DNA of 64,000 bases. Source: a phage. Below, in pieces: positions 37,487 to 42,056 of the stretch. Position 1 is the first letter of the stretch. Each line of letters begins with the position of its first letter. The notes beneath the pieces were generated by a model that ran no database searches, was not told the origin of the DNA, and saw only the letters and a list, made by a program, of their open reading frames with translations. A program made the position numbers and the translations under genes. The stretch lies in the sequence record PZ452598.1; one strand, 5' to 3'.

Positions 37487-37502
37487 AAGGGCCGAAGCCC
37501 TT
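37487..37502 (-). promoter_or_regulatory. UUCG-tetraloop hairpin overlapping the rII-fusion stop codon, followed by SD and ATG of next ORF
   Basis: AAGGGC-UUCG-GCCCUU then AAGGAAAAUUAUG; no U-run. Confidence 0.4.
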
Positions 37503-38928
37503 ATTTAAATTGTTCAGTAACGTCTTCAACTACTTCATATTGGCAGGTACGCATTTTAGCATCGTTGTAATCAATCGGAATTGATACTACATCGCGAGGA
37601 TGAACTTTAACTTTTACAACTCGGCTGGTTGAACTACCAAAGTGACGAATATAAGATTTAGAACACACATGCAAACCACGAGAACAAGTTTGTGTATCAT
37701 CGTCATTCACACGAGTACGTGGCATTTTAACTACTTTACCCGGACTGTTATCAAAGGTGTTTGAGTGACAGTCAAAGTAATTGCTGCGAACTACTTTCCA
37801 AGCATAGAAGTAACCATCTTCTGTAATTTCAATATCGTTTGCTACCAAGAAATCAAAGAGTCGAGATACCGCTTTTTGGCTTGGGTTTTCCAACAGATTT
37901 TCCAAGAACGGAAAATAAAATTCAAAGTTTTCGCCTTTTTCCATCGAGTCAAGAATACGATCAACCAAACCAGACCGCAATTCAATATTTTGATAGAACA
38001 AGCTTCCACCTTCAATTCGAACATCGCCGGAAATATATTTTTCAACAGCACGACGAACATTAATTTTTTGTGCCGCTTCTTCCAACTTATCCGCTACAAG
38101 CAGATTAAGAATTTCCTGGAAGTTTGAATGAGTATTAGGAGTTGCGTTATAAGTTACGCCATCAACAGTAATTGAAATGAATTTTTTAGATGCATTCCAA
38201 ATAATGTCAGATTTAGCAACTGGAGCAATAACTGCATCGCTATTAACTTTAACTGTAATATCACCGCTAATAGTCATCAAAATCCGGAAAATAATCATTT
38301 CGCGGTCAAGACCATTAATGATAGCCAAATCTTTGAACGGTCGCATGATATAAGAAACTTCATAAGCAAAGTTTCTAAAGTCTTTTTCTTCAACTGGAAC
38401 TACGATTTCAATACCAGTTTTATCATCTGGACCCATTTCTTTTACGAATGTAGGTTTAATCTGTGGACCATCACCATCCATGTAAGCTACATAACCACGA
38501 ATTTCACCTTTATGATACGAAGTAATACTAAACGTATCAGTATAACTAAACGGAGATTTAGAACCTAAACCAAATCCGCCAATAAAGTCATTAGATTCAG
38601 CTTTAGATGAACTGAAGTATGAATTATACAACCCAGGAGAATTATCATCACCTTGAATATCAAAATCACTCATACCCGGACCAAAATCTCGACAAACAAA
38701 TCGTGGGTCTAAACGTCCAGGAACTTGTATGATAAATTTTTCAGGATTTCCATTAAGTGCATGAGCATCAATCATGTTAGTAATCAATTCACGGACTACT
38801 GCGCGAATCTTGTTTGTATACAAATCAGATGACAGAATTTTAAATACTTTAGGAGATGCTGTGATGCTAAATGCTTTTGATTTAGAACCATTACCAAGAA
38901 TTGTTTCTTTTTCAGTGGTGATAATCAT
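37501..38928 (-). CDS. rIIA/rIIB: rIIA–rIIB in-frame fusion protein (475 aa)
   Basis: ORF track 475 aa; N-terminal GHKL ATPase motifs as in rIIA, C-terminal part recognised as rIIB-like; locus about 1.7 kb shorter than separate rIIA (725 aa) + rIIB (312 aa). Confidence 0.7.
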
Positions 38929-39196: not shown

Positions 39197-39541
39197 CTAC
39201 TGGCTCATCCATTCTTTACGAAGGTCAGCATTATCTCCCATGAGCATTTCAAAAAGCTCTTTCCAGTTCTCAGGAAGTTTAACAACATCATATACTGGGT
39301 TTTGAATCATCTCACGATATTCAGATTTTTCCAAAGAGCCAAGTCCCTTAATATAACGGATGCTATGTTTAGGTAGAGCATCTTTGGCACTCTCATATTC
39401 AGCGACTGTATAAAACCATTCTTGTTTTTTACCGACCTGAGCGATGATTACAGGAGTTTTGACAAAGCGAATTCGTCCTTGCTCAAACAATTCTGGCCAA
39501 TTACTAAAAAATCCGAGCAGAGAAGGATAAATAGAACCTAA
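39197..39541 (-). CDS. 60: gene 60 topoisomerase II small subunit, codons 47–160 (after the bypass)
   Basis: track ORF 39197..39490 extended upstream in frame to the landing site; resumes UUA GGU UCU... Confidence 0.92.
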   Translation of the reverse strand, partial: LGSIYPSLLGFFSNWPELFEQGRIRFVKTPVIIAQVGKKQEWFYTVAEYESAKDALPKHSIRYIKGLGSLEKSEYREMIQNPVYDVVKLPENWKELFEMLMGDNADLRKEWMSQ

Positions 39542-39591
39542 TCCAATAATCTCTTAATTATGAGGTATTTCTATAGATAGCCCGAAGGCTA
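39542..39591 (-). other. 60: gene 60 50-nt translational bypass (hop) element
   Basis: take-off GGA 39594..39592, UAG stop 39591..39589, stem-loop with UUCG loop, landing GGA 39544..39542. Confidence 0.93.
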
Positions 39592-39729
39592 TCCATCGTG
39601 ATCTGCGTCTGTCATAATAGCGACATTCGCATAGTTCATTGAAGAGGATTTAATAGAACGACGAACATTGTTCTGCAATTTATATTTTTTCATATCAACG
39701 CTAGAAGAATCAATTTTTACAAATTTCAT
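39592..39729 (-). CDS. 60: gene 60 topoisomerase II small subunit, codons 1–46 (before the bypass)
   Basis: MKFVKIDSSSVDMKKYKL...MTDADHDG then UAG; track ORF 39589..39780 has an upstream extension. Confidence 0.92.
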
Positions 39730-40528
39730 TATACACCTCATAGAACTTTTCATCAGGAATCCAACCGCGTTTAAATTCATTAAATGCTCGGCCGAATAAT
39801 TTTGAATTCACAGTTATATTATTAACTGATTTCCATTTAGCAACTCCCGTTCGTTTATAATGATCGGGGTCATATTTCGTGACGTACCATTCATATAAAT
39901 TTGGTATTAATTTTACAGCCTCTGGATTTGTCGCTGATTTATTATACCATGGTTTCGCTTTTTCAAGTTCAGCTGCTTTTGCAGTAGCAGCAACAGTATT
40001 TCCAATACCAACTAATTTTTCAGTTTTAATGCGTGGATCATTAACATGAAGACGAAAAACTTCGCCCTTTTCATTTTTAAAGCATGTCATGCCTTTAATT
40101 CCAGGAAGCTTAACACCTTTATTAACACCGCACCATTCCTTTGGGTTAAATGATCCTTTAATTAATAAGGCGCATTTACCCGATTTAATACTTCTCATTA
40201 AAACTTTATCTTTCATAAAGTTTTTTGACCATTCAGATACTGCTCTTTGATGGTAAATTCTAGCAATTTCATATAATTTACTAGAACGTAAATATTTTTC
40301 AGTGTTTAACATTCTATTCATCGCATATGCCATTTCACGATTACGATGAATTTTATATAGTAGAAAATGTGCTAAAAAGTGTTCACGAAAAGTCAGTTTC
40401 ACCAAATTTTCTTTATCATCAGAACCTCCCATTGATCTTGGAAGGATATGATGAATTTCACCCTTAAATTTAGAAACGCGGGTTTTACCCCGCACTATTA
40501 AGTCATTATAGATTTTTTCGTAATTCAC
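39710..40528 (-). CDS. mobA: free-standing HNH homing endonuclease (272 aa)
   Basis: ORF track 272 aa; HNH motif HHILPRSMGGSDDKENLVKLTFREH; overlaps 39 end and 60 start. Confidence 0.8.
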   Translation of the reverse strand: MNYEKIYNDLIVRGKTRVSKFKGEIHHILPRSMGGSDDKENLVKLTFREHFLAHFLLYKIHRNREMAYAMNRMLNTEKYLRSSKLYEIARIYHQRAVSEWSKNFMKDKVLMRSIKSGKCALLIKGSFNPKEWCGVNKGVKLPGIKGMTCFKNEKGEVFRLHVNDPRIKTEKLVGIGNTVAATAKAAELEKAKPWYNKSATNPEAVKLIPNLYEWYVTKYDPDHYKRTGVAKWKSVNNITVNSKLFGRAFNEFKRGWIPDEKFYEVYNEICKN

Positions 40529-42056
40529 CTACTGTTATCCATTTACCATTAATCTGTACTTCATCATTTTCATTTACGATAATTGTATCGCCATTTAGCT
40601 CGAAAGTAAACCACTCGCCATCTTCTTTTTCTTCAAACGCTTTTTCACCGAGAACTAGACCAGTGATTGCGCAAATATCAAATAGTTCTTTGTTTTTAAG
40701 CATATCTGCATAAGACATACCCCAACTGTTGAGAACTTTACCACGCAATGGATAACCACCGTGAAGTTCTTTATCACGAACATCAATAAGATATCCGATA
40801 GCCGAATCACCCTCAGTCAAGAAAAGAGTAGTATCAGCATCTTTACCGCAAAGATTCGCTTTGATATGTTTATGAACCTTAGCTTTAGAAGCCTTTTTAG
40901 CTGCTTTAGTTTCTGCTGCTTTTTCTGCCGCCAATTTACGAGCCAAAGCAGCTTCAATAATCGGCATTAGAATTGCTTCATTATTTAGAATAGCACGTGA
41001 AATCTTTTTAGCATCAAGTTGAATATGACTACGAATTTCGCCAAATGGAGAAGTCAAACGCTCTTTAGTTTGAGAATCAAATCGCATGTTTTTCATATCA
41101 CGAACAAACATAACGATAGTCAAACATTCTTTGACACGTGCTTTAGTCACATCAATTTTGAACTTACGTTTGATTTGTGGAATAAGGTCTTCACAAATAT
41201 CATCCATAGCGCAGTCAATGTGATGGCCACCATTCTTAGTATGAATGTTATTGACGTATGTTAATTGACGAAAACCATCCGGTGAACGACCAACCGCAAT
41301 AGAACAATTTTCTTGCTCTTGAACAATAGCATGTTCATCATACTGCCGTGCATATTTCTTAAAATTGCCCTGAACCTTTTTACCATTAAAGGTAAATTGA
41401 ATATCAGGATAAACTACAGCAAGTGTCTGGAGACGATCCAGTGTAATGTCAAGATAAACTTGGGACAGCTCATTAGTTTCAAATGACATAAAATCAGGAA
41501 TGAAAGTAACACGAGTTCCTTTCCATTTTCCAGGAATATCTTCCCATGATTTATTTTCCATGCCATTTGAACAACGAACTACAATATTATTTTGACCGTC
41601 GCCAGTTTCACCGACAAACATCACAGAAAAAATGTTTGTCAAACTAGAACCAACACCGTTCATACCGCCGGTGACGCGTTCTTTATCATCACCAAAGTTA
41701 CCACCTGCTTTTGGAATAGTCCATGCGGCAACAGGACCAGGAATTTCTTCACCGGTAGGTGTTTTAACCATCGCTTGTGGAATACCGCGACCGTTATCTT
41801 CAACTGTTACTTGATTGTTTTTAATAGTAACATTAATTTTATTCGCGAATTTAAACTTAGTACGAATACCTTCATCTACTGAGTTATCGATAATTTCATC
41901 AATAAGCTTAACAAGACCAGGTACATACTGAACACTTTCCCATTTACCAAACATAAAGCGCTCATGCGTTTCATTAGCAGAAGAGCCAATGTACATGCCA
42001 CTACGCTTTTTGATATGTTCAATATCGCTCAGAATTTTAATTTCATTCTTAATCAT
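40506..42056 (-). CDS. 39: gp39 DNA topoisomerase II large subunit (ATPase)
   Basis: ORF track 517 aa, start trimmed to second Met; GyrB-like GHKL ATPase and TOPRIM. Confidence 0.92.
   Translation of the reverse strand: MIKNEIKILSDIEHIKKRSGMYIGSSANETHERFMFGKWESVQYVPGLVKLIDEIIDNSVDEGIRTKFKFANKINVTIKNNQVTVEDNGRGIPQAMVKTPTGEEIPGPVAAWTIPKAGGNFGDDKERVTGGMNGVGSSLTNIFSVMFVGETGDGQNNIVVRCSNGMENKSWEDIPGKWKGTRVTFIPDFMSFETNELSQVYLDITLDRLQTLAVVYPDIQFTFNGKKVQGNFKKYARQYDEHAIVQEQENCSIAVGRSPDGFRQLTYVNNIHTKNGGHHIDCAMDDICEDLIPQIKRKFKIDVTKARVKECLTIVMFVRDMKNMRFDSQTKERLTSPFGEIRSHIQLDAKKISRAILNNEAILMPIIEAALARKLAAEKAAETKAAKKASKAKVHKHIKANLCGKDADTTLFLTEGDSAIGYLIDVRDKELHGGYPLRGKVLNSWGMSYADMLKNKELFDICAITGLVLGEKAFEEKEDGEWFTFELNGDTIIVNENDEVQINGKWITVGELRKNL

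Follow-up and report, generated by a model that had tools for sequence, protein, structure and literature searches.

How does the gene for a topoisomerase large subunit come to be divided in two, with an endonuclease gene between its halves and a stretch of untranslated letters inside the second half? The question is raised by positions 39197..42056 of phage sequence record PZ452598.1, of which a stretch of 64,000 nucleotides was analyzed (the window). This part of the window has 100% nucleotide identity to T4T, T4 wild/147/GT7, RB55, RB59 and other T4 records. It is almost certainly the 39-mobA-60 locus of phage T4, in which a mobile MobA cassette splits the topoisomerase large-subunit gene. 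The window also carries an rIIA::rIIB fusion, which may correspond to Benzer's r1589; a junction for comparison was sequenced by Maffei et al. 2021. The arrangement is already known as textbook T4 and has been published (Bonocora et al. 2011; Manning & Atkins 2022). The published MobA/gene 60 cassette of T4 (Bonocora, Zeng, Abel & Shub 2011; Manning & Atkins 2022, 10.1101/2022.08.31.505936) is the same locus and shows no substantive difference; mobA is intact in the window, whereas it is frameshifted in the legacy RefSeq record. The composing features are listed in Table 1. An earlier sequence-only reading had placed an HNH open reading frame between genes 39 and 60, overlapping both, and its coordinates were reproduced exactly: mobA shares 23 nt with gene 39 (40506..40528) and 20 nt with gene 60 (39710..39729), each time in a different frame. 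The distance between the endonuclease gene and the bypass element, estimated at about 150 nt at most, measures 118 nt from the end of mobA to the start of the gap. The gene names and the HNH assignment proposed at that stage also fit the sequence comparisons and the literature.

Table 1. Features of the 39-mobA-60 locus in window coordinates.
Feature	Position	Strand	Remarks
Gene 39	40506..42056	-	ATG 42056, stop 40506; 516 aa (ORF list)
gp39 C-terminal extension (CTE), 43 codons (FEEKEDGEWFTFELNGDTIIVNENDEVQINGKWITVGELRKNL)	40509..40637	-	Element-encoded; missing from uninterrupted alleles
mobA	39710..40528	-	GTG 40528, stop 39710; 272 codons; free-standing HNH homing endonuclease
HNH catalytic core of MobA, residues 23-54 (GEIHHILPRSMGGSDDKENLVKLTFREHFLAH)	40367..40462	-	Alignments and sub-threshold Pfam HNH
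MobA mobile cassette, T4-specific block	39542..40638	-	1,097 nt through landing codon; replaces 55 nt
Gene 60	39197..39729	-	ATG 39729, stop 39197; 160-aa gp60 after joining across gap
Gene 60 codons 1-30, N-terminal extension (NTE) MKFVKIDSSSVDMKKYKLQNNVRRSIKSSS	39640..39729	-	Element-derived; includes nascent-peptide signal
homR, gene 60 codons 31-46 (MNYANVAIMTDADHDG)	39592..39639	-	Recoded target copy; TOPRIM DxD motif
Take-off stem-loop	39573..39596	-	10-bp stem, UUCG loop; ViennaRNA -14.7 kcal/mol (36-nt segment)
50-nt coding gap	39542..39591	-	Stops in all frames; length 2 mod 3
Gene 60 codons 47-160 and stop	39197..39541	-	Resident C-terminal part: second TOPRIM half and tail domain

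The two topoisomerase genes divide between them what is a single protein elsewhere. The N-terminal 473 residues of gp39 correspond to the large subunit of a GyrB-like topoisomerase II, comprising the GHKL ATPase, the transducer and the first half of the TOPRIM domain. The Pfam profiles HATPase_c and DNA_gyraseB are found in gp39 and TOPRIM_C in gp60. As the glutamate of the TEGDSA motif lies at residue 415 of gp39 and the DADHDG motif at residues 41-46 of gp60, the TOPRIM metal site is divided, with one half on each polypeptide. The region matches PDB entries of T4 and T6 topoisomerase II, including the T4 gp39-gp60 entry 8yo3. In the cryo-EM structure of T4 gp39-gp60/gp52, an insertion of about 70 amino acids in TOPRIM forms an external pendant that leaves activity unaffected (PDB 8yo3).

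The boundaries of the foreign DNA were determined by comparison with the uninterrupted allele of phage RB6, using local BLAST and an alignment with fixed register, as a global MAFFT alignment misplaced the insertion. Homology with RB6 ends at nucleotide 1418 of gene 39 and resumes at the landing codon, and both boundaries are sharp. Nucleotides 1-1418 of gene 39 are 96.5% identical to RB6, and the resident part of gene 60 is 97.7% identical to nucleotides 1470-1818 of RB6 gene 39. The T4-specific block in between contains the 43-codon gp39 tail, mobA, the 30-codon gp60 head, a recoded copy of the 16-codon target and the bypass gap. The next nine nucleotides (39533..39541) are divergent as well, in which case 1,106 nt replace 64 nt. 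These measures agree with the published ones, i.e., an element of 1,097-1,106 nt with a 43-aa CTE (described by Manning & Atkins 2022), a 46-aa NTE including homR and a 50-nt gap (Manning & Atkins 2022). The sequence-only reading had thus named the right gene as inserted, the HNH open reading frame, but the whole element is larger, as it also includes the tails, homR and the gap. The recoded copy is identical to nucleotides 1426-1473 of RB6 at 35 of 48 positions (73%), compared to 95-99% in the flanks, and the MobA nick site lies in the homR-equivalent segment of the uninterrupted allele (Manning & Atkins 2022). As a marker of the donor lineage homR proved uninformative, being identical at 35-38 of 48 positions to Tequatrovirus and Mosigvirus alleles alike.

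The same comparison bears on the direction of the event. Conversely, the split could be ancestral, with T4 retaining a three-subunit topoisomerase, the single gene 39 of T2, T6 and the RB phages having arisen by fusion, and mobA being just a later lodger between genes. The cryo-EM paper leaves its wording open ('gene-fusion or gene-separation'), and a re-fused open reading frame has been reported in some Aeromonas phages (Manning & Atkins 2022). Yet, identity to contiguous alleles stays at 95-99% in the flanks until it breaks off at sharp junctions, the T4 block contains the 16 displaced codons a second time in recoded form, and neither the gp39 tail nor the gp60 head has a counterpart in uninterrupted alleles. 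The distribution points the same way, as the arrangement occurs in only 42 of 531 close records and each of six clades has near-identical relatives without the cassette (Manning & Atkins 2022). Transfer into T2 has moreover been observed experimentally, according to the literature. An ancestral split is therefore extremely improbable, and this reading can be considered already effectively refuted.

The full arrangement of 2,860 nt is present in the said 42 of the 531 matching records. Nearly all other matches listed (around 480 close relatives) align in two pieces spanning 1,818 nt with a single topoisomerase CDS at 96-98% identity. The expectation that close relatives encode one contiguous large subunit was thus borne out by an uninterrupted gene 39 of 1,818 nt in nearly all others listed, with RB6 as the aligned example. 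Beyond these, a tblastn search detected the CTE in 75 phage records, from Escherichia, Salmonella, Proteus, Acinetobacter, Aeromonas and Shewanella phages. The layout of gp39 tail, HNH gene, gp60 head and DADxDG-TAG-hairpin is repeated in Salmonella phage NP4 and Shewanella phage Thanatos-1, in which the MobA homologues at the same position have 60% and 42% identity, respectively. Splits lacking an intact endonuclease gene, which the sequence-only reading would have counted against an insertion, do exist: Acinetobacter phage KARL-1 carries the split with a broken mobA, an engineered T4 carries it with a mobA deletion, and clades of Aeromonas and Campylobacter phages have the split without endonuclease (Manning & Atkins 2022). 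Such derivatives are nevertheless not decisive against an insertion. Because the element-derived tails are kept, the natural cases are read as probable secondary losses.

Is mobA itself a functional gene? A match of its open reading frame to PHROG 655 ('homing endonuclease', E = 2e-57), full-length MobA matches in 73 phage records (tblastn) and the alignment of its HNH motif together identify mobA as a real gene and exclude a chance open reading frame. The Pfam HNH profile hits MobA residues 24-43 with 20.1 bits, 1.3 bits short of the gathering score of 21.4. The core residues are His26/His27, Asn41, His50 and His54, and the motif EIHHILPRSMGGSDDKENLVKLTFREH can be aligned to the HNH domain of a group II intron maturase and to Cas8f-HNH fusions. 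A lack of conserved catalytic residues upon alignment had been named as something that would refute the reading; these residues are intact, can be aligned and are invariant across four MobA-family proteins. Searched against the sequences of solved structures, MobA gave weak matches to the HNH motif alone (best E = 0.009). A weak resemblance of MobA residues 60-112 to the baseplate protein gp6 (sub-threshold in Pfam and PDB) was set aside as probably due to chance. As to expression, no mobA-specific promoter or terminator was found (8 promoter-like matches versus 13.3 in shuffled sequences), nor was the mobA start found to be masked by RNA structure, folding near the GTG being unremarkable (z = -1.4). 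We infer that mobA translation would be controlled by coupling to, or re-initiation from, gene 39 (Edgell 2010).

The legacy T4 record gives a different impression of this gene. NC_000866/AF158101 annotates a 'defective DNA endonuclease' and a separate ORF 60.1, and this view is repeated by Manning & Atkins and by Uzan & Miller. In addition, the complete genome of an engineered T4 has been deposited from which 284 nt of the region were removed, cutting mobA to 465 nt, and this suggests that mobA is dispensable. Taken together, mobA could be a dead remnant (a pseudogene) without function today, leaving the split and the bypass as frozen relics. In the window, however, mobA is one uninterrupted reading frame of 272 codons, collinear with those of HY03, BF15 and others, and its HNH residues are intact. 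In the legacy sequence, 11 extra single bases are scattered over about 210 nt (window positions 40189..40396), a pattern typical of old gel-reading errors; neither the window nor any of the other full-length T4 records listed contains them. Moreover, the GUG start of mobA and its 23-bp overlap with gene 39, as given in Edgell 2010, exist only in the corrected sequence, and nicking of the target by MobA, as well as high-frequency inheritance of MobA in mixed infections, are reported by the same source. We consider a pseudogene very unlikely; judging from its reading frame mobA is intact in the window, and the 'defective' mobA and 'gene 60.1' of RefSeq are attributable to legacy sequencing errors.

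Downstream of mobA, gene 60 has its own translation signals, with a Shine-Dalgarno (SD) sequence GAGG located 6 nt upstream of its ATG. Codon 46, the end of homR, is the take-off codon GGA (39594..39592) and is followed directly by UAG. A matching landing codon GGA is found at 39544..39542, and joining across the 50 nt restores the frame, yielding a gp60 of 160 amino acids that is collinear with residues 476-605 of the contiguous gp39. The 5' arm of the take-off stem-loop holds the take-off GGA and the UAG, an SD-like GAG (39553..39551) precedes the landing codon by 6 nt, and the nascent peptide KKYKLQNNVRRSIKSSS is present in gp60. That the UAG, the hairpin, the GAG and the nascent peptide act as bypass signals is taken from the literature (Manning & Atkins 2022). 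Chain C of PDB entry 5np6 is the 46-aa peptide of gp60, and ribosomes are reported to hop the gap with an efficiency of around 50%. The same hairpin sequence (TAGCCTTCGGGCTA/TAGCCTTAGGGCTA) occurs in NP4 and Thanatos-1.

The sequence-only reading had derived both the endonuclease gene and the bypass insert from the invasion of a mobile element. They could instead be two independent arrivals, the insert being for example a separately acquired, degenerate intron remnant. A possible origin of the 50 nt in a degenerated group I intron has been raised (Atkins 2016), and some metagenomic bypass cassettes are paired with GIY-YIG or VSR endonucleases, or with none (Manning & Atkins 2022). On the other hand, T4 contains one continuous block of non-homology, in which the recoded copy, at 73% identity, is all the target-like DNA that intervenes, and the HNH gene co-occurs with a bypass gap carrying the same hairpin in every clade examined. 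Joint transfer has been reported too: according to papers citing Bonocora 2011 (PNAS 108:16351), the split and the 50-nt insert were both copied into T2 by MobA. Two separate events are hence improbable. The single block argues for an invasion in which both parts arrived together, and the literature agrees. The HNH gene and the bypass insert move as one unit today, while an ancient separate origin is conceivable.

The following sequence of events would account for the locus. A selfish cassette of about 1.1 kb occupies the GyrB-like large-subunit gene, which is single in most relatives. During mixed infection, MobA would nick the uninterrupted allele in the segment coding for the TOPRIM DxD motif, in line with published experiments, after which recombinational repair from the cassette-bearing genome would copy the cassette in. 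Cleavage of the uninterrupted T2 allele by MobA is an experiment that has already been published (Edgell 2010; Bonocora 2011, the latter as described in citing papers). Since an essential gene is divided by the insertion, the cassette brings its own repair kit. It supplies the upstream half of the gene, gp39, with an in-frame tail of 43 codons and a stop, and the downstream half, gp60, with a ribosome-binding site, a start codon and a head of 30 codons. The kit further includes the 16 target codons in recoded form and, where this copy ends, the 50-nt insert, which protects against MobA nicking according to papers citing Bonocora 2011. Ribosomes would hop the insert in the RNA (take-off GGA, UAG, hairpin, landing GGA), so that gp60 is still made, and gp39, gp60 and gp52 would assemble into an active enzyme, as described in the literature. 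The sequence holds nothing at odds with this MobA-cassette explanation.

Free-standing mob-family genes are known from other loci. MobE of Aeromonas phage Aeh1 is, like MobA, encoded by a free-standing HNH gene inside an essential enzyme gene, nrdA, and the two resulting polypeptides, which have element-derived tails, likewise reassemble into an active enzyme. It differs in its target, ribonucleotide reductase, and in having no translational bypass insert. In T4, mobE lies between nrdA and nrdB, neither of which is split. Endonucleases of introns and inteins (I-TevI/II/III in T4; HNH nickases of the I-HmuI type) spread in the same manner, by cleaving or nicking the empty allele followed by recombinational repair, and their own insertion also disrupts the target site. 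However, introns and inteins restore the product by RNA or protein splicing, whereas the T4 cassette leaves the gene split and its 50-nt disruption is hopped by the ribosome. The mitochondrial 'byp' elements of Magnusiomyces capitatus are also short mobile inserts bypassed between matched take-off and landing codons, but they have no endonuclease gene, occur in many copies per genome and belong to a different translation system.

A second HNH gene was noticed in other phage records and lies outside the window. In 28 records (some of which are GenBank/RefSeq duplicates), a gene related to mobA is located just downstream of an unsplit gene 39. The HNH domain of its product is around 60% identical to that of MobA, while the C-terminal domain is different; in phage F1 the HNH protein has 265 aa. 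Four Tequatrovirus genomes carry this gene together with a gene 39 whose last 360-420 nt are replaced by Mosigvirus-type sequence, and the 5' ends of these replacements (nucleotides ~1400-1460) coincide with the junction and target of the MobA cassette. In the unverified genome CJY920, both elements occur back to back. It is possible, though less likely than not, that the TOPRIM segment of gene 39 (nucleotides ~1400-1480) is a hot spot shared by two different HNH homing elements, each with its own strategy of self-immunity. Should the second enzyme cut there as well, it would stand for a recoding-based alternative in which the gene stays unsplit, or for a forerunner of the arrangement in T4.

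The locus in the window itself is left with no novel reading, and its confirmation here yields nothing new biologically. The annotation problem persists in RefSeq, where mobA of T4 is displayed as a defective fragment and a 'gene 60.1'. Programmed ribosomal bypassing has its founding example in the gene 60 locus of T4, which also shows clearly how a selfish endonuclease cassette can divide an essential gene and bring along all that is needed to preserve its function.

A dozen phage T4 genomes deposited independently, among them T4T, T4 wild/147/GT7, MT984581, RB55 and RB59, match all 2,860 nt of the locus (window 39197..42056) at 100% identity. One of these identical genomes annotates the three frames as topoisomerase II large subunit, homing endonuclease and topoisomerase II. 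The 39-mobA-60 arrangement is thus the T4 MobA/gene 60 cassette locus itself and not just a similar one: every defining feature testable in silico is present, and the enzymatic and genetic features of this classic, already known T4 system have been published. The anatomy, boundaries, polymorphism, catalytic motif and bypass signals described here derive from this analysis; the steps of the mechanism are taken from the literature.

An ORF scan of the window reveals three overlapping reading frames on the minus strand. The overlaps are exactly those given by the sequence-only reading, namely 23 nt (40506..40528) between mobA and gene 39 and 20 nt (39710..39729) between mobA and gene 60, and the proposed proximity of endonuclease ORF and bypass is also found, as 118 nt separate the mobA end from the start of the gap. 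When the 50-nt gap is skipped, the open frame is regained to 39197, giving a 160-aa protein. In the RNA fold, the first 24 nt of the bypass region make up a 10-bp take-off hairpin with a UUCG loop (-14.7 kcal/mol), of which the 5' arm holds the take-off GGA and the UAG; further on, a GAG precedes the landing codon by 6 nt. Pfam detects GHKL ATPase and GyrB transducer domains in gp39, and TOPRIM_C in gp60 after the gap. The split runs between the halves of the TOPRIM metal site, leaving the glutamate (TEGDSA, aa 415) to gp39 and the DxD motif (DADHDG) to gp60 (codons 41-46). Matches among solved structures comprise the T4 gp39-gp60 fusion (8yo3 and others), a 611-aa chain of T6 gp39 and, within 5np6, a chain that is the 46-aa gp60 peptide.

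Features of the gene 39-mobA-60 locus, of the T4-specific block in their order, and of the second HNH gene in other phages
Feature	Position	Strand	Details
Gene 39	ATG 42056 to stop 40506	minus	516 aa; start preceded by GAGGATAA
mobA ORF	GTG 40528 to stop 39710	minus	272 codons
Gene 60, first ORF	ATG 39729	minus	46 codons to UAG; GAGG upstream at 6-nt spacing
Gene 60 take-off codon	39594..39592	minus	codon 46, GGA; UAG next
Gene 60 gap	39591..39542	minus	50 nt; second GGA (landing) at its end
T4-specific block, part 1			C-terminal extension (CTE): 43 codons + stop finishing gene 39
T4-specific block, part 2			mobA
T4-specific block, part 3			N-terminal extension (NTE): start codon + 30 unique gene 60 codons
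T4-specific block, part 4			16-codon copy of displaced target (homR): MNYANVAIMTDADHDG in T4 vs LNYHNIAIMTDADHDG, 35/48 nt identical
T4-specific block, part 5			50-nt gap
Second HNH homing-endonuclease gene	L003 (phage F1) 1618..2415		265 aa; also in phage loci L012, L013, L014, L015

Elsewhere in the window, a 475-aa ORF (37501..38928) represents an in-frame rIIA::rIIB fusion. Compared to wild-type T4, 1,700 bp are deleted, and the junction (38262..38274) shows 13 nt of microhomology. The deletion takes out approximately rIIA codons 223-725, the intercistronic region and the first 55 or so rIIB codons, joining about the first 222 rIIA codons to rIIB from around codon 56. None of the phage records in the collection spans this junction unbroken. 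Maffei et al. (2021) reported an r1589-like rIIAB fusion in a T4 obtained from a culture collection, and the fusion in the window resembles it; this is a likeness rather than an established identity with r1589.

The whole 39-mobA-60 arrangement occurs in 42 of the 531 phage records matching the region. Nearly all others, among the matches listed, align in two pieces spanning 1,818 nt within one CDS, and RB6 (gene 39, 605 aa) and RB14 ('gp60plus39') are uninterrupted examples; the single contiguous large-subunit gene presumed for close relatives is thereby borne out. In local alignment, T4 and RB6 share 96.5% identity over gene 39 nt 1-1418 and 97.7% over the last 349 nt. Between these flanks lie 1,097 nt in T4 (window 40638..39542) versus 55 nt in RB6, and the following 9 nt are divergent too. 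As judged from this alignment, the block bears the signature of one inserted element that brings its own recoded target. Such a continuous block upholds the earlier proposal that endonuclease and bypass both arose from mobile-element invasion of a single gene. It also agrees in size and parts with the published MobA element (1,097-1,106 nt, CTE of ~44 aa, NTE of 44-46 aa, homR with 67-81% identity; Manning & Atkins 2022).

The literature describes MobA as nicking a single strand of the uninterrupted allele, inside the segment matching homR. Mixed infection leads to high-frequency copying of the cassette into T2, which thereby acquires the split as well as the 50-nt insert, and it is this insert, not the recoding, that blocks nicking of the cassette-bearing allele (Bonocora 2011, as relayed by later papers). 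About half of the ribosomes are reported to hop the gap. The split subunits join gp52, and the ~70-aa CTE and NTE hang from the TOPRIM domain as an external pendant (cryo-EM paper). Given the GUG start and 23-nt overlap of mobA, its translation would be set by coupling or re-initiation from gene 39; a promoter scan and folding around the GTG start revealed no special promoter or RNA structure for mobA.

The 272-codon ORF matches PHROG 655 'homing endonuclease' (E=2e-57); over residues 23-50 (GEIHHILPRSMGGSDDKENLVKLTFREH) its product is alignable with Cas8f-HNH fusions as well as with a group II intron maturase, in the HNH domain of the latter. Aligning it with the homologues of Salmonella phage NP4 (60% identity) and Shewanella phage Thanatos-1 (42%) and the related phage F1 enzyme shows His26/27, Asn41 and His50 to be invariant. 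At 20.1 bits, the Pfam HNH hit falls short of the cut-off of 21.4 bits, a marginal miss outweighed by the other evidence. By these homologies the middle ORF qualifies as a real HNH endonuclease gene, and the catalytic residues, whose lack would have spoken against the original claim, are present. Residues 60-112 (window 40193..40351) weakly resemble, below threshold, domain C-III of the T4 baseplate protein gp6 (PF21871: 19.8 bits, cut-off 27 bits; PDB 9f4a: E=0.18), probably by chance.

The mobA gene is intact in the window. T4 mobA has been called a pseudogene in two papers (Manning & Atkins; Uzan & Miller), and NC_000866/AF158101 annotates its space as 'mobA, defective' (114 nt) and 'gene 60.1'. 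Relative to the window, this legacy sequence carries 11 scattered single-base insertions over ~210 nt of mobA (40189..40396) and a few substitutions, as well as a compensating frameshift pair (41074..41079) and a substitution (40993) in gene 39. Together these produce RefSeq's 'defective mobA' and 'gene 60.1'. They are absent from the other full-length T4 records among the matches listed and from 97-98% identical relatives, all collinear with the window. The simplest reading is that they are probably sequencing errors. The description by Edgell (2010) of a GUG start, a 23-bp overlap, target nicking by MobA and high-frequency inheritance fits an intact ORF.

Outside the window, 28 records (including some GenBank/RefSeq duplicates) have, directly downstream of gene 39, a different, MobA-related HNH gene; gene 39 is unsplit in them. 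The first 70 aa of its product are ~60% identical to MobA; the C-terminal domain is different and annotated with NUMOD3 motifs. This gene appears native to Mosigvirus. In four Tequatrovirus genomes that carry it, gene 39 turns ~100% Mosigvirus-type from nt ~1400-1460 to its end, with breakpoints that coincide with the MobA cassette junction and target, and phage F1 retains a remnant of the old gene 39 3' end (..PDLRKEWMSQ*) on the far, downstream side of the endonuclease gene. One genome, CJY920 (locus L011, 712..4371; PQ349265.1, an UNVERIFIED record), contains both elements, in the order 39-mobA-60 with bypass gap, Mosigvirus-type 3' part of gene 60 and second HNH gene, which puts gene 60 between two HNH homing-endonuclease genes. 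No description of the second element was found in the literature searched.

The cassette recurs in NP4 (Gelderlandvirus) and Thanatos-1, where a gp39 tail, an overlapping HNH gene and an overlapping gp60 head ending in ...IMTDADVDG are followed by TAG, T4's hairpin and a gap. The CTE is found in 75 records from Escherichia, Salmonella, Shigella, Proteus, Acinetobacter, Aeromonas and Shewanella phages, versus 73 with a full-length MobA match. Degenerate derivatives include Acinetobacter phage KARL-1, whose mobA is broken, and reported clades that have lost endonuclease and/or gap but retain the tails (Manning & Atkins 2022). T4_583L (MZ375356.1), an engineered, genome-reduced mutant T4 clone, misses 284 nt of the region, leaving 465 nt of mobA, and keeps 39, 60 and the bypass; its deposition as a complete genome suggests that mobA is dispensable for growth. 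A split without endonuclease, earlier named as evidence against insertion, hence does occur (KARL-1, T4_583L and the reported clades), but it represents secondary decay and therefore leaves the insertion model standing.
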